Below, in pieces: positions 60 to 9,770 of a DNA stretch of 64,000 nt (position 1 is its first letter; each line of letters begins with the position of its first letter). This DNA comes from Candidatus Thorarchaeota archaeon (GTDB lineage Archaea > Asgardarchaeota > Thorarchaeia > Thorarchaeales > Thorarchaeaceae): positions 64,001 through 128,000 of the forward strand of contig CAVSBO010000003.1 in the NCBI GenBank assembly GCA_963726195.1. Direction: 5' to 3'. The notes below the pieces were generated by a model that worked only from the letters and a program-made list of their open reading frames with translations, was not told the DNA's origin and searched no databases. Both the position numbers and the translations under genes were made by a program.

Positions 60-1478
60 TCACAGACGTCCGAGGGGAGCCTTCTCTTTCGCGGTGCTGG
101 CGAAGTACCACTTCGTGAAAGATTCCAGCTTCCCTGTGACTCCCAGCCACCAGCATAGGTAAGCGGCGAGTATTAGGACGCTGGCGATTGGATTAGCAAT
201 ACCGCTTGCAGGAGCCATTGCCAGAAGCATGGAGATTGCACCGATTGCAATGAGCAGGGGTCTGCCTGCTGAGGGCTGCATCGCTTTGCTCATGCGCCGC
301 CAGAGATACAGATATACTATCAGTGGCAATACGAACTGGACGATTCCGGTCACCGCCAAGATAGGAACAGTATAGGGCATCGTGGTCATATCCTGTGGGT
401 AAGACATCGATACATAGATGACCTCGGGCATGATGATTAGGGCCGGTAGCAGAGCAAGCGCTCTCCAATCGAGTGCAAAGAACGCGCTCAGGTTGAAGAA
501 CATAAGCGAGAAGACTGAAAGGTATACGGCCGCGTAATACCAAGTAATGCTACTCGAGACTCCTATTGTCTGTGTGACGTCGAGCACGTAGGACGCAACG
601 CTCAAGAATAGGAACATGAACAATGCAAGTGTTGCACGACTTCTGGTTTTCTTCCATCTGGCATATGTGTAACCACTCGTGCTCCATCCCAGGACCGCTG
701 CTATAACAACCAAAGTGATTGAGGTCTCCTGGACCAGATCGGGCAATGGCTGGCCAATGAAATACGAAAGAAAGAAGGAGAGAAGGGCGTAGGATACCCC
801 ATACAAGGCGAGCTCGACAGAGATTCCAATATCCTTGTAGTAGAATGCAACAGCGGCAATAGCCGGTCCGAGCAACCGCAGGCCGATGACTGCGTCAGCA
901 AGATTCAGGGCTCCGAAGACAAATGGATGGATTGTCAGACGGTACAGAGGATAGGCCGTGACTAAATAGAAGAGCGCAAGGCTTGTTGGTCTCCTGGTTC
1001 TCGCAAACGTGTAAGCGAACAGGATGACTACTGGGAGGTACATGGCTGATGTTACGTCTCCGGTCGAATCTCTGATGTCGAGCGGGACTCCCGCGAACCG
1101 TAAGATCCAAAACACACTGACAATGGCCATTGCAGCGAGTGCTGGAACAATGAATTGTCCTCTTCCGAGGACAATCAAGGCTGCCGCCGTTATGAACAAT
1201 GGAGCAAGCAAGGCGAAAGCAGCGTAAGTGTAAGCCAATTGAAGCCGCAGTTCTAACGACCCGGACGTGAGCATCACAGCCGAGAGGAAATTGGTCAAAG
1301 ATGCTAGGCCCATGGCGAATGTCCCGGCCGCGTAGGCGTAAAGAGGCCTAGACATTCGCTTGTCCTCCTCTGGTAGTTCCTTTACTCGCCGGCGAGTATA
1401 TCTCACCATTGCAGAGCTGGCTACGAAAAGAGCCAGGCTCATCATAAGCTCGGATGCATCAGACAATTGTATCGCCAT
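60..1478 (-). CDS. Polytopic membrane protein (~15 TM, apparent 7TM+1+7TM), paralog of 2862..4341
   Basis: 472-aa ORF with ~15 hydrophobic segments and a GGAGG RBS upstream of the ATG. Strong similarity to 2862..4341 (RPLY, GLRL-GPAI, DIGISVEL, TSGYTYARWKK, WWLGVTG). Confidence 0.85.
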   Translation of the reverse strand: MAIQLSDASELMMSLALFVASSAMVRYTRRRVKELPEEDKRMSRPLYAYAAGTFAMGLASLTNFLSAVMLTSGSLELRLQLAYTYAAFALLAPLFITAAALIVLGRGQFIVPALAAMAIVSVFWILRFAGVPLDIRDSTGDVTSAMYLPVVILFAYTFARTRRPTSLALFYLVTAYPLYRLTIHPFVFGALNLADAVIGLRLLGPAIAAVAFYYKDIGISVELALYGVSYALLSFFLSYFIGQPLPDLVQETSITLVVIAAVLGWSTSGYTYARWKKTRSRATLALFMFLFLSVASYVLDVTQTIGVSSSITWYYAAVYLSVFSLMFFNLSAFFALDWRALALLPALIIMPEVIYVSMSYPQDMTTMPYTVPILAVTGIVQFVLPLIVYLYLWRRMSKAMQPSAGRPLLIAIGAISMLLAMAPASGIANPIASVLILAAYLCWWLGVTGKLESFTKWYFASTAKEKAPLGRL

Positions 1479-1490
1479 CGTAGTTACCTC

Positions 1491-1889
1491 CTAAAGCATC
1501 TTCGAAGCCCAACCATCGGCCTTGCTTCGAGCTGATTCCTTGCCCGTTGCTGCTTCACGGATGGCCTGCGTCAGCTCTTCATTGACTAAACCTGCAAAGT
1601 GCTTCTGGAAAGCTTCACACACCCTCCGATTTGCCGATTGGCTATCTGTGTCTGCTTTGTCGTGTATTGTGACCAGAAGATACTCGCCTTCTCGTGCGAC
1701 GAGTACTCTATCATTGCCGAGCAGAAGCTCCTTGATAGTATCACCGGACATCTTCTGAGAAAACATGTCTATTGCGGACACGAAGCCACCGAATAACGCG
1801 TCATCGGCATGGAAGTTGCCCAGAGCAATCGCAGCCAAGGGCTCGCCAGCTTCGTTGATCAAGTAGACCATCTTGATCAGAGACATCAC
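1491..1889 (-). CDS. Longin-like (Asgard) domain protein
   Basis: Pattern VYLINEAGEPL...DDALFGGFVSAIDMFSQKMSGDTIKELLLGNDRVLV...LLVTI is typical of Asgard longin/roadblock-like folds. Paralog of 4354..4752. Confidence 0.75.
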   Translation of the reverse strand: MMSLIKMVYLINEAGEPLAAIALGNFHADDALFGGFVSAIDMFSQKMSGDTIKELLLGNDRVLVAREGEYLLVTIHDKADTDSQSANRRVCEAFQKHFAGLVNEELTQAIREAATGKESARSKADGWASKML

Positions 1890-2161
1890 CCTCGAAACAT
1901 ACTTGCAGTCGTTTGAGCACCATCAGCTGCCGTTTTCTTCGTACACTCTTTCGCGGCATGCGTGTCCGATTGGGAGCTGCAGACCTTAGGCCCATTGTTC
2001 AGAGACTGAACCACGAGGTGAGCTGTCCTGAATTCAGCGGCAGCAACAGTGAAATTCCTGTAGCTTGTCAGGGGTGAGACCCTCTGTGCCTTCCTGTCTG
2101 TGCTAGAGACCCCGGTCGGCACAATGACGCCACGCAGCGGTTCGTTTCTCAAAAGGATCAC
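1886..2161 (-). CDS. Diverged, Cys-less paralog of the small Zn-ribbon protein 4755..5018 (possibly decaying)
   Basis: Occupies the same cassette position. Residual matches: PLRGVIV/PVTGVVV, AQRV/AKRV, HLVV/HAVI, KKTAADGAQ/KKSALDKAQ. Its stop overlaps the longin start (GTGA). Confidence 0.45.
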   Translation of the reverse strand: MILLRNEPLRGVIVPTGVSSTDRKAQRVSPLTSYRNFTVAAAEFRTAHLVVQSLNNGPKVCSSQSDTHAAKECTKKTAADGAQTTASMFRG

Positions 2162-2328: not shown

Positions 2329-2865
2329 CTATCCTTTCGCGACGTATTTCTTCATCAGGGTTCTAGCTGCTGTATCGAAAATCTCGTTAACGCCTTGACC
2401 CGTCTTTGCTGATACCTCGATGCAATCGGCACCAAACTTCGAAGCAAACGCGAGTCCTTCCTCAATGGATACACCGCCGTTAGAGGTGCGTTCGTCAGTC
2501 TTGTTGCCCACGATGAGGAGGTCGCAGTCAGGCGCGACTTCTCGCAGTCGATGTATCCATTCCTCTAGCCGTTCAAGAGTGTAAAGTCGATTGACGTCAT
2601 AAACAGTTATCCCGAACTTAGTCCCTTTGAAGTAGTCTTGCACTACGTCGTGAAACCTAGGTTGTCCTCCCAGGTCCCAGAGCATGATCGTCAACTGTGT
2701 GTCGCCGATTGTTACCTTCTTGGATGCAAAGTTGGCACCCACAGTCATGCGCATGTTGTCATCGAAACGATTCTCTGTGTAACGCAGGGTGATGCTGGTC
2801 TTGCCTACTCCTCCCTCCCCAATCAGAACGGTCTTGAAGACTGGGGCTTTGCTAGACATCTTCAT
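2329..2865 (-). CDS. Rab-like small GTPase
   Basis: G1 GEGGVGKT, G2 MTVGANF, G3 WDLGGQ, G4 NKTD, G5 SAK, plus RabF-like RFHDV, YFKG and VYDV. ATG at 2865 overlaps the upstream TGA (ATGA). No C-terminal prenylation Cys. Confidence 0.93.
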   Translation of the reverse strand: MKMSSKAPVFKTVLIGEGGVGKTSITLRYTENRFDDNMRMTVGANFASKKVTIGDTQLTIMLWDLGGQPRFHDVVQDYFKGTKFGITVYDVNRLYTLERLEEWIHRLREVAPDCDLLIVGNKTDERTSNGGVSIEEGLAFASKFGADCIEVSAKTGQGVNEIFDTAARTLMKKYVAKG

Positions 2866-4341
2866 GCGCCACCTGACGAGGATGTTCCTTCCGGTTGGGA
2901 GACCGAGGCCGCAATGGGCTTCGGCTTGACAGTAGTAAAGTGCCACCACTTTGTGAAGCGCTCACTTCTTCCAGTAACTCCTAACCACCAAGCTAGGAAT
3001 CCACCCAGAATCAGAATTCCGCTGATTGGGTTTGCCACATCCAGAACCGCTGCGCCCAAGATGAAAGAGCCGACAGCCAACGCAACAGTGAGTTCTAAGA
3101 TTCCCATTGCAAACAGGAGTGGTCTGCTTGCTGAAGGTGTCGATGCGTGTCTCATTCTTTGCCACAAGTACAAGTACAGGGCGACCGGCACAACTGCGGC
3201 AGAGAGACCTGTTATGCTGACCACTGGAGTGAAGAAGGGATTGGCAGTTGGGTTGACCGGGTATTGCACTGCCAAGAAAAGAAAGAGCGGCACCATCATC
3301 AAAACAGGCAACAACAAGAGCGTTCTCCATTCGAGACCAAGAAATGCAGCCATGTTGAAACACATTAGGCCGATGAATGTCAAGACAATAGTTGCATATG
3401 TGTAGTACACTGCGCTTGCGAGACCCACTCCACCGAGCGCCACCAGTATGAACGCGCAAGTAGTGACCATGAACGATAAGAACAATGCGAATGTTGCCCC
3501 AACCCTGCTCTTCTTCCAACGGGCATACGTATACCCGCTTGTGCCGAACCCGATTGTACAGCCAAGCGCAATCAATGTGAGTGACGTAATCAATGTGGCA
3601 TCGGTGACGGATGAAATCATGACATATGAAAACCAGAATGAGATGAACGCAAACGCCATTCCATAGATCACGAGCTCAACTGAGATTCCTATATCACGTA
3701 GTTGGAAAGCGGCGAAAGCGATTGCTGGACCGAACAGTCGCAAGCCGACAACCAACGAGATGAGGTCAATTGGGAAAGGCGGGAGAGCAGTGAGCGTGAT
3801 TGAATAAAGAGGATAGAATGTGACTAGGTAGAAAAGCCCGAGACTCGTGGCCTTTCTTGTCCGGACCAGTAGGTAACCGAATAGCAGAACCGCAGGTATG
3901 TACATAATCGAGGAGACGACTGCAATCGCACTACGAACATCGATTGGGTTTGCTATGGTTGGCGATATCCAGACATAGCTAACAACCACCAACGCAAACA
4001 CCACCGGAACGATGAATTGCTCCCTCCCGAGGACAATCAACGCGGCTATCGAAATAAACGCTGGCGCGAGTATGGCCAAAACTACGTAGGCATATACTGG
4101 CCAGAAGCGCGATACCCAAGGTCCGATAACAACTCCTGTGCCTGCCACGTAGTTAGTCAGAGATGTCATGCCCATCACGAAAGTGCCAGCTGCGTATGTG
4201 TAGAGGGGTCTGCCCAATCTCTTGTCCTCCTCGGGCAGCTCCTTGATTCGACGACGAGAGTATGCTACTATCGCAAAGCTCAGCTGCTATAAGGCCCACA
4301 AACATGAGAAGTTCCGATGCTTGGTTCAGCAGTATCGCCAG
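2862..4341 (-). CDS. Polytopic membrane protein (~15 TM), with a 1-nt frameshift near 4283
   Basis: ORF 2862..4217 plus upstream LAILLNQASELLMFVGLI / SFAIVAYSRRRIKELPEEDKR, which matches the paralog N-terminus MAIQLSDASELMM...YTRRRVKELPEEDKR. CTG start at 4341 lies behind GGAGG. Confidence 0.8.
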
Positions 4342-4353
4342 TGTTCTTGCCTC

Positions 4354-4752
4354 CTATAACATCTTTGAAGCCCAATCGTCTGCTTTGCTCCGAGCAGACC
4401 CTGTGCTAAGAACGGCTTCACGGATAGATTCTATCATTTGGTCAGTTACAACGCCGCCATAGTGCTTTCGAAAAGCCTCGCATGCTCTCCGGTTAACAAT
4501 CTGACTGTCGGTGTCGGTCTTGTCGTGGACCGTAACAAGAAGATGGGTCTCCTCACGAGCCACAACGACTCTGTTCTCGCCGAGAATGAGTTCCTTTATT
4601 GAGTCCCCAGCCATTTTGTGACTAAACATGTCGATAGCAGACATGAACCCACCAAACAGCGCATCATCCGCATGGAAGTTGCCAAGGGGGATTGAAACCA
4701 GCGTCTCGCCGGCCTCGTTAATAACGTAAACCATCTTGATCACTTCAATCAC
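4354..4752 (-). CDS. Longin-like (Asgard) domain protein
   Basis: MVYVINEAGETL...DDALFGGFMSAIDMFS...IKELILGENRVVV. Close paralog of 1491..1889. Likely GTG start at 4752. Confidence 0.75.
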   Translation of the reverse strand: MIEVIKMVYVINEAGETLVSIPLGNFHADDALFGGFMSAIDMFSHKMAGDSIKELILGENRVVVAREETHLLVTVHDKTDTDSQIVNRRACEAFRKHYGGVVTDQMIESIREAVLSTGSARSKADDWASKML

Positions 4753-4754
4753 CT

Positions 4755-5018
4755 TCAGAGCGAGTCCATCCATGACTGAGCTTTGTCGAGTGCACTCTTT
4801 TTCTGCTCGGCGTCTCCCGCAGCCTCAACATCACGAACCGCGAAAGTCTTGTCCACGAACAGGATCACTGCGTGTCCCTTCTTGCACTTGGCGGGAACGA
4901 TAACCGGTACTCTCTTGGCATTCAGAATCGAATCTTCATCTACTACTACGCCAGTGACCGGGCCCTTGCATACCGGGCATGGGACATCTGTCAGTGTCTT
5001 CTTTACCAAGGGAATCAC
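4755..5018 (-). CDS. Small Zn-binding protein (CxxC...CxxxH, Asgard-type 'FVDKxFxVR' domain)
   Basis: CPVC...CKKGHAVILFVDKTFAVRDVE. First gene of the cassette; its stop abuts the longin start. Confidence 0.75.
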   Translation of the reverse strand: MIPLVKKTLTDVPCPVCKGPVTGVVVDEDSILNAKRVPVIVPAKCKKGHAVILFVDKTFAVRDVEAAGDAEQKKSALDKAQSWMDSL

Positions 5019-5730: not shown

Positions 5731-5862
5731 TCACATCGTGAGTGTTTCGTATGCTGCGAGCATGTGGACCCGAGTATGCTGGGTTTCGTGGAGTCAGCAA
5801 TCATACTCTCCCGCGCTCAATTCAGCGAACCAAATCAGGAGCGCCTGAAACCTGATAAGACA

Positions 5863-6525
5863 ATGGGTCATGGGAATAACCCGGAGACTGTAACGAGAAA
5901 GAGAGCGGTGGTTTGTCCTTCTTGCGGCGCGCCCCAAGACAACGGGTCTCCAAGTTCTGGTGTTCAGTCATTCTGTCGTTACTGCGGAAGTCCTCTTGCC
6001 TTTATCGGCGACGTCAGGAAGAGGACTGGACCATGTCAGAATCACCCGGATGTCCCGTCAGCGGGCACCTGCAAAAAGTGCGGGGGCAGGTTCTGTGAGA
6101 ACTGTCTCTATGTGCTTCGAGAGATGCGGCATGAATATGTCTGTGAAGTGTGCTTGGATGAGACCAAACATCGTATACGGATTAATAGAATATTCGGGGC
6201 CCTGCTCACAATAGTCATCGCAGTTGCATGGATTCCTCTTTCCACAACGCAGTACGTGTACCCGTATCTCTTGTTTGTGGCCTTCTACATCCTCGAAGGG
6301 TTGGTCGGGATTTTTCGGCCAATTGAATTCCCTCTTCTTGCAACCAAAATGCATGAGTTTACTCCCAATCCGGGTTCCATCTACGTGAAGTGTCTCAACT
6401 GCGGTTCAGCCTACCACTATGGTCCAGACAAGGTCGAGCCTAATCGCACGGTTGTCTGTCAGAACTGCGGCCGGACGATCAACCTCGAGGGCGAACCCGA
6501 CACGGACGAGCAACGATTTGTTTGA
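5863..6525 (+). CDS. Multi-Zn-finger membrane protein, paralog 1 (Zn ribbon + B-box-like + 2 TM + Zn ribbon)
   Basis: CPSCG..CRYCG; CQNHP..CKKCG..FCENCL..CEVC; 2 TM; CLNCG..YHY..VCQNCG. Start approximate. Confidence 0.8.
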   Translation: MGHGNNPETVTRKRAVVCPSCGAPQDNGSPSSGVQSFCRYCGSPLAFIGDVRKRTGPCQNHPDVPSAGTCKKCGGRFCENCLYVLREMRHEYVCEVCLDETKHRIRINRIFGALLTIVIAVAWIPLSTTQYVYPYLLFVAFYILEGLVGIFRPIEFPLLATKMHEFTPNPGSIYVKCLNCGSAYHYGPDKVEPNRTVVCQNCGRTINLEGEPDTDEQRFV

Positions 6526-6635
6526 GTCTCCCAAAACCGACAAGATCATTATTGTGCGTTCGAACAAGAATAGTGGGTCGGAAGCAGCTCAAGCTTGATA
6601 AGACAAGTGGCCATGGCAATACACCAGGAAGAATT

Positions 6636-7268
6636 GTGGGTGAGGAGACTTCAGTTTGTCCCTCCTGTGGTATGCCCCAGCGACATGGACCAGGCATCAT
6701 CGGTACCCGGATGTATTGCAGGTACTGCGGTAGCGCTCTCACACAGCAGGGTACCTTCAAAGTAGCGGCGCAGCCATGCGAGAATCATCCGGAAGCTCCA
6801 TCAGTAGGCTCCTGCAAAGAATGCGGCGGCGGATTCTGCGAATACTGTCTTTACGTACTACCCCGGTCAGAACGCGGATATGTCTGTGAGAAATGTCTAG
6901 GAGAAGTCATTCATCGCATACGAACCAATAACGTGTTACGCGGCTTGGTGGTGACGGCGTTCTTGGTCTCGATTCCTCTTTCGTATGCACAGTCATTTGC
7001 ACAGTACCCCTTCGCATTCCTCATGATGCTGCTAGTAATGGCATTCCCTGGTATTGGCTCACTTTTCGAGCCGGTCGAGTTTTACTCTCTGGCCAGCAAA
7101 ATGCATGAATTTGCATCCAGCCCGGGATCTGTCATTGTCACGTGTGGTAACTGCGGTGCAGTCTACCACTATGCTCCAGACAAAATCGATTCCGACAACG
7201 AAGTCGTCTGTCAGAACTGCAATCGAATAATCAACATGCAAGGTGCGCCCGGCCAAGCTTCATATTGA
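6636..7268 (+). CDS. Multi-Zn-finger membrane protein, paralog 2
   Basis: Same Cys/His pattern as paralog 1, with shared KMHEF..PGS and VVCQNC. Start approximate (GTG 6636). Confidence 0.8.
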   Translation: MGEETSVCPSCGMPQRHGPGIIGTRMYCRYCGSALTQQGTFKVAAQPCENHPEAPSVGSCKECGGGFCEYCLYVLPRSERGYVCEKCLGEVIHRIRTNNVLRGLVVTAFLVSIPLSYAQSFAQYPFAFLMMLLVMAFPGIGSLFEPVEFYSLASKMHEFASSPGSVIVTCGNCGAVYHYAPDKIDSDNEVVCQNCNRIINMQGAPGQASY

Positions 7269-7389
7269 CACAACTTTCAGGACACACAGACTGAGGATCG
7301 GACAACGAATCCAGTTACAGGTGGACCTATTCTACTCATTCTCATAAACCTTATGAGCTGTGCTTGGGAATGATAACACGGGAGTCTGT

Positions 7390-7899
7390 GTGGAGAGAGA
7401 AGCTTTCGTGTGTCCGTTTTGTGGCGCGCCTCAGGAAGGTGGATTGCCATCAGGTGTGACGCAGACAAAATGCCTGTACTGCGGAAATACGATTGTCCTC
7501 CCACGTCGTCTCACAGGCTTGACACAACGATGCCCGAATCATCCCGATTCATTGACATCCGCTTTCTGCACGAGATGCGGCCGGGGATTCTGTAGTCGCT
7601 GCCTTTACGTACTGAAAGGAGAAGGCGGAGCCGTGCAATATCTATGTCCACAGTGCGCCGGCCTGGCAACCATCGAAGCTACACCGGGCATCTACCTAAC
7701 GATTTGCTGTTCAGCCTTGTTCTTTGTTGTCGGACTATCGGGTATTCGAAGCAGCGGAGATTCTTTTTCTATGGCCGTCATATGCTTGGGGTTTGGTATA
7801 TTCTGTTTGGTAGGAGGGATACTTCAGAGGCGTACAATCAACAACATGCCCACGCTTGCGGGCAAGATAAGGGAGCAGCGCGGCAGTCTTGATACTTGA
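7390..7899 (+). CDS. Multi-Zn-finger membrane protein, paralog 3 (lacks the C-terminal Zn ribbon)
   Basis: CPFCG..CLYCG; CPNHP..CTRCG..FCSRCL..CPQC; 2 TM; ends after PTLAGK. Confidence 0.8.
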   Translation: MEREAFVCPFCGAPQEGGLPSGVTQTKCLYCGNTIVLPRRLTGLTQRCPNHPDSLTSAFCTRCGRGFCSRCLYVLKGEGGAVQYLCPQCAGLATIEATPGIYLTICCSALFFVVGLSGIRSSGDSFSMAVICLGFGIFCLVGGILQRRTINNMPTLAGKIREQRGSLDT

Positions 7900-7980
7900 T
7901 ACCGATACTCCACGATGACCACAGGTGAAGCATGTCGCATCATGGTCCTCGTTTCAAAAGCCTGATATCCCTTCGCCACA

Positions 7981-8634
7981 GTGTCAGATTCGGGCATTGA
8001 AATGGAGAGAGAGGTGTTGGTCTGTCCATCGTGTGGCGGACGCCAGAAACAGATATTGTCGTCCAGCATATTTCAGACTCGATGCGAGTACTGCGGCAGC
8101 ACGATTCTTATTCCACGAGAGTTAACTGGGCTTGCCCGACGATGCCACAACCACCCTGACCGCATAGCAATGGGCATTTGCCATGATTGCGGACAGACCT
8201 TCTGCGAGGATTGTCTGGTCGTATGGGTCCAAAATGCTGAGAAGAAGTACATTTGCCCTGAATGCAGAGACCGAAGACGTCACACGCTTACTTTGGAATT
8301 CCGGTTTCTTATGGTCCCCGGACTGGTCGTTCTTTCGGTCGGACTTCTGCTTGAAATGCTTTCACCGGCTTCAGTGCTCGGAATAGTTCCTTTGACATTG
8401 GGCTTCCTCTGTCTCTACGTGGGGGGTATGGACAGGATAGACAACGGGGAGATTGGGACGATGAAACAGGAACTACAGGAACAGGGGGCAGCTGGCGAAG
8501 GCCTTCGGGAGGAGTGTCCTCACTGTCACGCACTTTACTTTTACAACCTGCATCTAATCAGGCCTGACTGGACCGTCGCTTGTCAGAATTGCGGGAGGGA
8601 CTTCAAGCTGCGTGGCACGCTTCCCGTTGGTTGA
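7981..8634 (+). CDS. Multi-Zn-finger membrane protein, paralog 4
   Basis: CPSCG..CEYCG; CHNHP..CHDCG..FCEDCL..CPEC; 2 TM; CPHC..IRPDWTVACQNC. Confidence 0.8.
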   Translation: MSDSGIEMEREVLVCPSCGGRQKQILSSSIFQTRCEYCGSTILIPRELTGLARRCHNHPDRIAMGICHDCGQTFCEDCLVVWVQNAEKKYICPECRDRRRHTLTLEFRFLMVPGLVVLSVGLLLEMLSPASVLGIVPLTLGFLCLYVGGMDRIDNGEIGTMKQELQEQGAAGEGLREECPHCHALYFYNLHLIRPDWTVACQNCGRDFKLRGTLPVG

Positions 8635-8771: not shown

Positions 8772-9770
8772 ATGGAGGAATCCCAAGTGAAAGCGGTCCA
8801 AGCAACTGACCTGACGAAGATGTATTCGGACTTCAAGGCGGTTGATTCAATCTCGTTCGACGTTGACGAGGGACAGATATTCGGGCTTCTTGGGCCAAAC
8901 GGTGCCGGGAAGACGACGACTATACGAATGGCGCTCACTCTCATCAGACCCACATCTGGAAGCATCAAGGTGTTTGGTATCGACTGCGTAAAATCAGCAG
9001 CATCTGTGCGACAAATCTCGGGTTACGTCCCCCAGGAGGTCTCCATAGACACGGACCTCTCAGGTTACGAGAATCTTCTGATGTATTCGAAGTTATATTA
9101 TACGCCGAAACAGGAGCGAGGCAAGAGAATCCAAGATGCTCTTGAGTACATGGAGCTCGCTGACCGCCAGCACGATTTGGCTAAGACTTATTCCGGGGGT
9201 ATGATGCGGCGCCTAGAGATAGCCCAAGCACTCATGAACAGACCCAAGATGCTCTTTCTCGACGAGCCAAGCATCGGCTTGGATCCATCAGCAAAGACTA
9301 CTGTCTGGGACCACGTAATGCACTTGAGAGATGAATACGGGACCACGATATTGGTGACCACTCATGACATGCATGAAGCCGAAGTGCTTTGCGACAAGAT
9401 TGCCATAATGAACACAGGAAAGATTGTAGTGGAGGGTTCGCCAAAGCAACTCAAGGATGATCTGGGCGGCGACATGATCTCAATCACAGCTCATGATGGA
9501 GATTGCTCATCGATTCTTCAAGAGCACGGGCAACTACTGGTATCAAAGCCCGATGAGGGAACATACGAGCTGGTGGTAGTTCAGGGTGAAAAGGCAATAC
9601 CCGCGATTTTGGAATCTCTTGAGATTCACAAGATACATGTGGAGTCCGTATCGCTCAAGAAGTCTACACTCGATGATGTGTTTCTGAAGTACGCGGGGGC
9701 TAGGATTCAGAACGGCGGCACATGGCGCGATGCGCGAGTCACGAGAACGGCACTCAGGAAGCGAAAATAA
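8772..9770 (+). CDS. ABC exporter ATP-binding subunit (DrrA-like)
   Basis: GPNGAGKT, YSGGM, LFLDEP, TTHDM. Confidence 0.92.
   Translation: MEESQVKAVQATDLTKMYSDFKAVDSISFDVDEGQIFGLLGPNGAGKTTTIRMALTLIRPTSGSIKVFGIDCVKSAASVRQISGYVPQEVSIDTDLSGYENLLMYSKLYYTPKQERGKRIQDALEYMELADRQHDLAKTYSGGMMRRLEIAQALMNRPKMLFLDEPSIGLDPSAKTTVWDHVMHLRDEYGTTILVTTHDMHEAEVLCDKIAIMNTGKIVVEGSPKQLKDDLGGDMISITAHDGDCSSILQEHGQLLVSKPDEGTYELVVVQGEKAIPAILESLEIHKIHVESVSLKKSTLDDVFLKYAGARIQNGGTWRDARVTRTALRKRK

Follow-up and report, generated by a model that had tools for sequence, protein, structure and literature searches.

Tandem seven-helix bundles in an Asgard membrane protein encoded in a conserved four-gene cassette with a Rab-like GTPase

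Introduction

The four-gene conservon CvnA-D of Streptomyces, reportedly proposed by Komatsu and co-workers in 2006 as a prokaryotic analogue of signalling from G-protein-coupled receptors (GPCRs) to G proteins, unites in one operon a membrane sensor, a roadblock-type protein, a small accessory protein and a Ras-superfamily GTPase. Here we describe a gene set of comparable organization from a 64,000-nucleotide (nt) stretch of DNA of a Candidatus Thorarchaeota archaeon (assembly GCA_963726195.1, contig CAVSBO010000003.1, positions 64,001 to 128,000 of the forward strand; hereafter the window, with positions counted from its first letter). The membrane component of this set is a protein of fifteen predicted transmembrane (TM) helices, the 15TM protein, which is represented in the window by an intact gene (15TM-A, product P0001) and a paralogue (15TM-B). 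The likeness to the conservon is an analogy of organization, not homology. The conservon's own sensor, CvnA, is of the histidine-kinase type (PMC4316618 describes Cvn9 and CvnA), whereas the 15TM protein has no kinase domain detectable with Pfam and carries bundles of seven TM helices (7TM) instead. The conservon is actinobacterial and combines an MglA-family GTPase with a DUF742 accessory protein, whereas the set described here is found in Asgard archaea and combines a Rab-like GTPase with a zinc (Zn)-ribbon protein.

Other known systems resemble individual parts of this set. LYCHOS (GPR155) is likewise a many-TM protein with a GPCR-like 7TM domain, and it signals to a small-GTPase system regulated by longin and roadblock proteins, GATOR1-Rag. 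Its first ten helices, however, form a PIN-like transporter domain and not a second 7TM bundle, it carries a DEP domain, and its superposition on the 15TM protein gives a root-mean-square deviation (rmsd) of 11-14 Å. Bacterial 7TM receptor modules (PF07695 and PF16927, located before HisKA, GGDEF or HTH_AraC domains) are also prokaryotic 7TM proteins and signal to a cytoplasmic output, but in them a single 7TM module is fused to an enzymatic or DNA-binding output, whereas the 15TM protein comprises two modules with no fused output and is accompanied by separate partner genes. SWEET sugar transporters follow a 3+1+3 plan, in which two homologous three-helix bundles are joined by an inversion linker helix. 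The 15TM protein is alike in construction, since odd-numbered homologous bundles and one linker helix keep the same orientation, but the SWEET repeat has three helices and belongs to a transporter that is unrelated to the 15TM protein in sequence or fold. Eukaryotic GPCRs (e.g. ADGRL3, chain 8jmt_A), together with the designed GPCR-like proteins 8oyx and 8oyy, share with each 15TM bundle the helix order, the handedness and the predicted orientation, with the N-terminus outside and the C-terminus inside (N-out/C-in). Like eukaryotic GPCRs, the 15TM protein has a more conserved cytoplasmic half and a short amphipathic helix past the last TM helix; it differs from them in having no detectable sequence similarity, two bundles per chain, and a Rab-like GTPase partner in place of a heterotrimeric G protein.

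Small GTPases are numerous in Asgard archaea, as are longin and roadblock proteins, and a standing question is which regulator serves which GTPase and by what route GTPases devoid of a lipid anchor reach the membrane. Biochemical work on Thorarchaeota Rab proteins has noted that genome layout rarely helps to pair GTPases with regulators (Tran et al. 2024, PMC10933270). One conserved Asgard operon has been reported to encode a LAMTOR1-like roadblock protein, a Rab-like GTPase and a DENN protein (Liu et al., preprint 10.1101/2020.10.19.343400). It resembles the present set in pairing a Rab-like GTPase with a regulator of the roadblock/longin superfamily, but it includes the DENN protein, no membrane protein or Zn-ribbon is described for it, and the present cassette is not mentioned there. 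The families listed in the literature as structurally shared between Asgard archaea and eukaryotes include '7TM proteins' and a 'class C GPCR' cluster. A search of the Asgard literature, with most subscription-journal papers lying outside it, returned no description of the cassette or of a tandem-7TM protein. By fold, the 15TM protein is a GPCR-type 7TM bundle present twice; by sequence, it belongs to no described family.

Helix layout and internal duplication

No Pfam (E-value 0.1) or NCBIfam family matched the full P0001 protein, and its architecture was approached through structure prediction and family alignments. The AlphaFold2 model of the whole protein, built from a 12-sequence alignment, contains fifteen long helices and a short C-terminal amphipathic helix (predicted local distance difference test [pLDDT] 81.2, predicted template modelling score [pTM] 0.76). 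When the N-terminal 246 residues were modelled with a 37-sequence alignment, the same eight helices were obtained at higher confidence (pLDDT 91.5, pTM 0.89). This alignment, A2, comprises 37 full-length members that reach down to 20% identity to P0001, and it underlies the family-wide figures given below; its mean hydropathy profile shows exactly 15 major peaks. The original prediction, made from the sequence of the window alone, had counted about 15 TM helices by hand (TM1-7, an extra helix, TM9-15) and had proposed an AlphaFold model as a check, and both model and hydropathy agree with that count. The extra helix it placed between the bundles is likewise recovered, with residues 221-242 falling outside both 7TM structural alignments (residues 1-217 and 245-457). 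The modelled layout of the 15TM protein is thus a 7TM bundle, a linker helix (TM8) and a second 7TM bundle, TM8 serving to restore the N-out state and so to hold the second bundle in the orientation of the first. We also considered TM8 as a homologue of the C-terminal amphipathic helix, with E222 aligned to E452, and rejected it at an hhalign score of 8.0, equal to the reversed control.

The two halves are related by descent. Comparison of the N-terminal and C-terminal halves of A2 with hhalign aligned residues 39-178 to residues 276-419 over 135 columns (probability 97.7%, E-value 1.6e-12, score 83.7), while reversed-sequence controls scored 20.5 and 16.6. In the register of this alignment TM2-6 correspond to TM10-14, the halves being offset by eight helices. 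TM1-7 and TM9-15 are therefore homologous and derive from the internal duplication of a GPCR-fold seven-helix bundle. It could be argued that the halves are alike merely because all 7TM bundles are, so that there was no duplication and the association with the cassette genes is hitch-hiking. The pairwise identity between halves is in fact about 15%, and when only the close family was used (12 sequences) the N/C profile score of 24 did not exceed the reversed controls, the comparison being uninformative without the deeper A2 alignment. The signal in the 37-sequence alignment, at 83.7 against controls of about 20, over 135 columns and in exact helix register, makes this view very hard to sustain.

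The two internal echoes that had originally been offered as evidence of duplication do not hold up. They pair TM5/6 with TM9/10 and TM1/2 with TM13/14, which is the wrong register, and the corresponding hhalign scores (14.9 and 23.2) are at control level; they are best explained by the like composition of basic cytoplasmic loops leading into a helix. A four-helix periodicity, drawn from these echoes and from the basic loops after TM1, TM5, TM9 and TM13, was discarded on the same alternative-register scores.

Structural comparisons support a GPCR-type fold for both halves. Each half aligns over about 200 residues, at 3.7-4.5 Å, to the same GPCR-fold chains, 8jmt_A and 8oyx_B, and its seven TM helices follow the helix order and handedness of the GPCR/rhodopsin fold. 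Given their homology and their common matches among solved chains, the two halves are also expected to superpose on one another. Among the predicted structures of the ESM Atlas, the nearest neighbours of both halves are prokaryotic 7TM sensor modules (TM-score by target 0.5-0.7), including modules that precede HisKA, GGDEF and HTH_AraC domains, 7TMR-DISM_7TM proteins and a 240-aa (amino acid) archaeal cluster (TM-score 0.71); a cluster bearing HisKA_7TM was also retrieved with a feature score of 0.84. This resemblance is structural only: the full protein matches neither PF07695 (7TMR-DISM_7TM) nor PF16927 (HisKA_7TM), and PF07695 appears in 1 of the 37 N-halves, at an E-value of 0.29. Homology to a GPCR class was similarly not detected, as neither the full protein (E-value 0.1) nor the N-halves (E-value 1) matched GPCR families in Pfam. 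The DRY, NPxxY and CWxP motifs are absent from their usual positions; by eye, a D/E-W-R occurs at the cytoplasmic end of TM11 and an N-P at the outer start of TM15.

The top Foldseek match of the whole model is LYCHOS/GPR155 (E-value 0.02), which could be taken to indicate that the 15TM protein is a transporter, a 'transceptor' or a lipid scramblase, regulated by the GTPase module or reporting to it in the manner in which SLC38A9 or LYCHOS feed the Rag GTPases. Some GPCR-fold proteins do transport or scramble, and a linker helix between tandem repeats is a typical trait of transporters such as SWEET. The fit to LYCHOS is nevertheless poor overall (TM-score 0.27; VIA rmsd 11.2 Å over 301 residues) and comes from the GPCR-like domain of LYCHOS itself, and MATE transporters match with a TM-score of only about 0.1. 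Moreover, the 37-sequence alignment contains no conserved polar or charged residue in mid-membrane, and conservation drops towards the outer leaflet without a peak at a central site. A transport function is thus rather improbable, and an overall architecture like that of LYCHOS was rejected, LYCHOS being retained solely as a functional analogy. No match spanning both bundles was found in the PDB or Atlas searches. The description of the protein as a fused 7TM pseudo-dimer, which the original prediction had held open to refutation by a helix count other than about 15, by halves that do not superpose or by a transporter fold, accordingly stands: there are fifteen TM helices, the halves are homologous, both match GPCR-fold chains and no transporter fold was found. 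The term 'receptor' that accompanied this description would imply a role in ligand sensing, which the protein may have.

Topology and conservation

The orientation of the protein was predicted from the distribution of basic residues. Mean counts of Lys plus Arg in the eight segments assigned to the inside are 5.6, 1.5, 2.6, 1.0, 3.3, 1.2, 4.6 and 3.6 (sum 23.4), against 0.1 to 0.6 in each of the eight predicted outside segments (sum 2.7). By the positive-inside rule, this distribution supports a predicted N-out/C-in topology for the whole protein and for each bundle. The basic loops following TM1, TM5, TM9 and TM13, from which both halves had initially been assigned as N-out in the single sequence, are present and kept across the family.

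Conservation follows the same polarity. Inside segments have conservation scores of 0.50-0.62 and outside segments of 0.28-0.36, and in 15 of 15 helices conservation is higher in the inner half than in the outer one (overall 0.533 vs 0.400, Mann-Whitney p = 6e-13). Inner helix halves hold 19 of the 42 highly conserved positions and outer halves a single one, and the conserved charges (R31, E38, K40, R163, D216, E222, R274, K276, R339, R395, R406, K450 and E452) are all cytoplasmic. The only invariant positions are E222, T283, P345 and P385; E222 stands at the cytoplasmic start of TM8, where Y226 is near-invariant, and T448, G449 and E452 are conserved at the C-terminal amphipathic helix. The conserved surface of the 15TM protein is thus its cytoplasmic face. 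The poorly conserved outer face fits either varied ligands or no ligand.

These patterns bear on two further explanations. The first sees in the 15TM protein a passive anchor that senses nothing and tethers a complex of the longin-like, Zn-ribbon and GTPase proteins encoded beside it, as LAMTOR1 or SR-beta anchor theirs, or that marks a membrane domain. In favour of this view, the extracellular loops are short and less conserved than any other region, no extracellular domain is present, and the conserved charges are without exception cytoplasmic. Fifteen helices forming two complete GPCR-fold bundles are, however, far beyond the needs of anchoring, and conservation extends to the inner halves of all 15 helices instead of being restricted to loops, which suggests conformational coupling through the bundle. 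We therefore regard a purely passive anchor as unlikely. The second explanation is a 7TM-fold membrane enzyme (a hydrolase of the PAQR/alkaline ceramidase type) or a rhodopsin-type light sensor. The absence of a retinal-binding Lys from the seventh helices, reported at the outset for the single sequence, extends to the family, with no Lys in the TM7 or TM15 columns in any sequence (0 of 37), and no alignment column has His in more than 30% of the sequences, so that a metal-binding His motif is also lacking. Both observations argue against a rhodopsin or a PAQR-type hydrolase, and structural matches to such proteins rank below the GPCR-fold chains, leaving this explanation barely credible.

Gene order and conservation of the cassette

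In the window, the genes of the set lie on the reverse strand and are transcribed in the order Zn-ribbon protein, 139-aa protein, 15TM-B, GTPase, 91-aa open reading frame (ORF), 132-aa protein, 15TM-A (Table 1). The start codon of the GTPase gene overlaps the TGA stop of 15TM-B as ATGA. The 91-aa ORF had no match to the Zn-ribbon query and may be a decayed Zn-ribbon copy or non-coding.

We surveyed 17 loci harbouring the 15TM gene, of which about 13 are distinct (21-60% identity). All four cassette genes are present and co-oriented in 16 of the 17 loci, the remaining locus beginning at a contig end, and the Zn-ribbon and longin-like genes directly precede the 15TM gene in each of the 16 loci that have an upstream flank. 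The gene for the Rab-like GTPase either follows directly downstream of the 15TM gene or heads the cassette, immediately upstream of the three others. Across cassettes, the longin-like and 15TM genes are separated by a 12-nt gap or overlap, and this tight packing of cassette genes suggests co-translation. Within this four-gene cassette (Zn-ribbon, longin/roadblock-like, 15TM, Rab-like GTPase), which is conserved in Asgard archaea, the membrane subunit is the 15TM protein, and its position next to a GTPase gene, first noted in the window only, is no local accident. Retention of the cassette in about 13 distinct loci at such levels of divergence and in at least three Asgard families also speaks against the hitch-hiking invoked above.

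Some loci depart from the basic arrangement. Extra longin-like genes accompany the cassette in L006:243-3361 (-), L004:6477-6968 and L018:963-1394, with no second 15TM gene; L006 has a second Zn-ribbon gene as well, and the downstream longin-like copies of L004 and L018 have no C-terminal Trp tail. In another Asgard family, two genes for Rab-like GTPases flank the cassette, one upstream and one directly downstream (L025:3932-4480 and L025:7518-8066).

Table 1. Position of the cassette genes, of 15TM segments and of related features. Coordinates refer to the window unless a locus is named.
Feature	Position	Strand	Remarks
15TM-A (P0001), subfamily A of the tandem-7TM family	60..1478	(-)	Intact ORF, ATG start, 472 aa
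N-terminal 7TM bundle, TM1-7, residues 1-217	828..1478	(-)	Predicted N-out
Linker helix TM8, residues 221-242	753..818	(-)	Outside both 7TM structural alignments
C-terminal 7TM bundle, TM9-15, residues 245-457	108..746	(-)	
Cytoplasmic amphipathic helix past TM15, residues 450-461, conserved	96..131	(-)	DSSP on model and conservation
Putative longin/roadblock-like protein A, 132 aa, paralogue of the 139-aa protein, C-terminal Trp tail	1491..1889	(-)	12 nt upstream of 15TM-A
91-aa ORF at the Zn-ribbon gene position	1886..2161	(-)	No Cys ligands, no Trp tail
Rab-like small GTPase	2329..2865	(-)	PF00071 Ras, E-value 1.7e-40
15TM-B, subfamily B, two 5' lesions	2862..4341	(-)	Alignment to orthologue and paralogue
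One-base G insertion in 15TM-B, near 4281, TM1 shifted out of frame (+1)	4281..4281	(-)	Compared with orthologue and paralogue; column 97 of that alignment
CTG at the conserved start-codon position of 15TM-B	4339..4341	(-)	Orthologue and copy A have ATG
Putative longin/roadblock-like protein B, 139 aa, C-terminal Trp tail	4354..4773	(-)	12 nt upstream of 15TM-B
Zn-ribbon protein, 87 aa, CPxC...C..H, C-terminal Trp tail	4755..5018	(-)	First gene of the cassette
Trp-tail regions	4755-4800, 4354-4390, 1491-1527	(-)	Also in L002, L004, L006, L012-L019, L025
Single-7TM ORFs	L020:5753-6541, L021:6247-7053, L022:6154-6903, L023:2083-2868		

Soluble partners of the 15TM protein

The GTPase is a single-domain protein that gave its best matches in the PDB with Rab21, with a crystallised Rab from Thorarchaeota (7ezb) and with Rab5. 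Its C-termini, as listed across the cassettes, contain no CaaX-type Cys motif.

No Pfam model matches the 132-aa or the 139-aa protein above threshold, and neither single-sequence nor profile searches with the longin-like protein against PDB sequences returned a match. Three weaker signals point to a putative longin or roadblock domain. In the language-model feature search of the Atlas, the protein scored 0.93 to an Asgard cluster named 'Roadblock/LAMTOR2', of which 22% of the members carry Fuz_longin_1. Sub-threshold matches were obtained to Fuz_longin_1 in 3 of 13 longin-like members (best E-value 0.053) and to Robl_LC7 in 1 of 13 (E-value 0.07). Finally, the order of secondary-structure elements read from the sequence is likely strand-strand-helix-strand-strand-strand-helix, as in longin domains.

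Although Zn-ribbon and longin-like proteins show no relationship in sequence, both end in a common Trp tail, K-A-x-x-W ... L/F-COOH, which is preserved even between cassettes at 27-31% identity. Among Zn-ribbon proteins, the C-terminus conforms to ...K[A/T]xxW[M/F]xx[L/F] in 13 of the 14 that are intact, with Tyr for Trp in the other one; among longin-like proteins, the ending ...xxW[A/G/S]xx[M/V/I][L/F] is shared by all ten whose genes immediately precede a 15TM gene. In the tail alignment (A5), the Trp and the preceding Ala are invariant.

Proposed role of the cassette

Taken with the passive-anchor and transport accounts weighed above, the data lead us to lean towards the reading in which the 15TM protein is a membrane platform, and possibly a sensor, for a GTPase module. 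The Trp tails of the Zn-ribbon and longin-like proteins would dock on the cytoplasmic face of the 15TM protein, perhaps one tail per 7TM half, since the two homologous bundles could provide two equivalent docking sites. Longin and roadblock proteins act on GTPases elsewhere, as in Mon1-Ccz1, Ragulator and MglB, and the longin-like protein might, as a homodimer or as an A/B heterodimer, act as guanine nucleotide exchange factor (GEF) or GTPase-activating protein for the Rab-like GTPase. Because it has no lipid-anchor motif, the GTPase would need a protein anchor at the membrane.

A more specific and quite doubtful version takes the cassette for a machine that leads from a 7TM receptor to a small GTPase, with the conserved C-terminal Trp helices of the longin-like and Zn-ribbon proteins entering the cytoplasmic bundle cavities, as the C-terminal helix of G-alpha enters a GPCR, and with a conformational change of the tandem receptor gating a Mon1/Fuzzy-type longin GEF on the Rab-like GTPase. 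Were it true, Asgard archaea would possess in this cassette a counterpart, or even a precursor, of the GTPase switching that receptors control on eukaryotic membranes. A demonstration of coupling would make it the first module to link 7TM proteins to small GTPases among the prokaryotes most closely related to eukaryotes.

The cassette constitutes a fixed and conserved set in which a single Rab-like GTPase is accompanied by one or two longin-like proteins, a Zn-ribbon protein and a membrane protein, all of which can be jointly expressed and tested. It provides a testable candidate for how Asgard archaea tie a GTPase switch to the membrane, and in its 15TM subunit two GPCR-fold bundles are naturally joined in one chain, with no output domain fused to them.

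The second 15TM copy

The original prediction had extended its reading of 15TM-A to the frame at 2862..4341. This is sustained insofar as 15TM-B is a paralogous frame that is open from TM2 onward, with 46% identity to P0001 from that point; it fails at the 5' end, where CTG replaces ATG and TM1 is frameshifted. Both lesions were identified by comparison with copy A and with the orthologue in GCA_003345555.1. A GGAGG motif is retained 8 nt upstream of the CTG. As assembled, the open frame runs from a TTG at 4217, encodes 451 aa without TM1 and is otherwise open. 15TM-B may accordingly be a recently disabled gene, a gene with a weak CTG start combined with an assembly error, or a gene for a 14-TM product initiated at TTG 4217. 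No 15TM copies beyond A and B were found in the genome to which the window belongs.

The reverse pattern is seen in GCA_003345555.1 (PRDJ01000036.1, L001:10797-10991), where 15TM-A is reduced to a 65-aa remnant after the second longin-like gene and copy B is intact. In view of this opposite pattern, one intact 15TM copy may be enough.

Family and distribution

An exhaustive profile search recovered 55 family representatives at E-values up to 0.001, none of them longer than 502 aa, which indicates that there are no fused forms among them. The family has no Pfam model and divides into two subfamilies, A (about 472 aa) and B (about 484 aa), which occur together on two contigs. It was found in Asgard genomes only: matches are present in 63 of the 301 Asgard genomes sampled, including 38 of 76 within the family to which the window belongs, and full-length members also occur in two other Asgard families. 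In a collection of 5.8 billion proteins, only 11 clusters matched, one of them labelled as a Thorarchaeota metagenome-assembled genome.

Natural half-size members were considered and rejected, as P0037 is a contig-end fragment and P0029 originates from a locus where three of the cassette genes are frameshifted. The locus L026:2589-5383 (GCA_054383095.1) contains a full cassette in which frameshifts break up each of three genes (longin-like, 15TM and GTPase), probably reflecting an indel-rich assembly, and it has given rise to a misleading 245-aa 'half' protein in databases. ORFs of 249-268 aa with a single 7TM, from other Asgard families, show weak matches to the start of the C-half profile (positions ~238-308). 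Their neighbours include no GTPase cassette and no informative Pfam matches, and these ORFs may be relatives of the unduplicated ancestor.

Head-to-head with the cassette, the window encodes on the forward strand (5764-8634) four tandem paralogues, membrane-anchored proteins that carry several Zn-ribbon or B-box-like Cys motifs, and these are followed by a gene for an ABC transporter ATPase (8772-9770).

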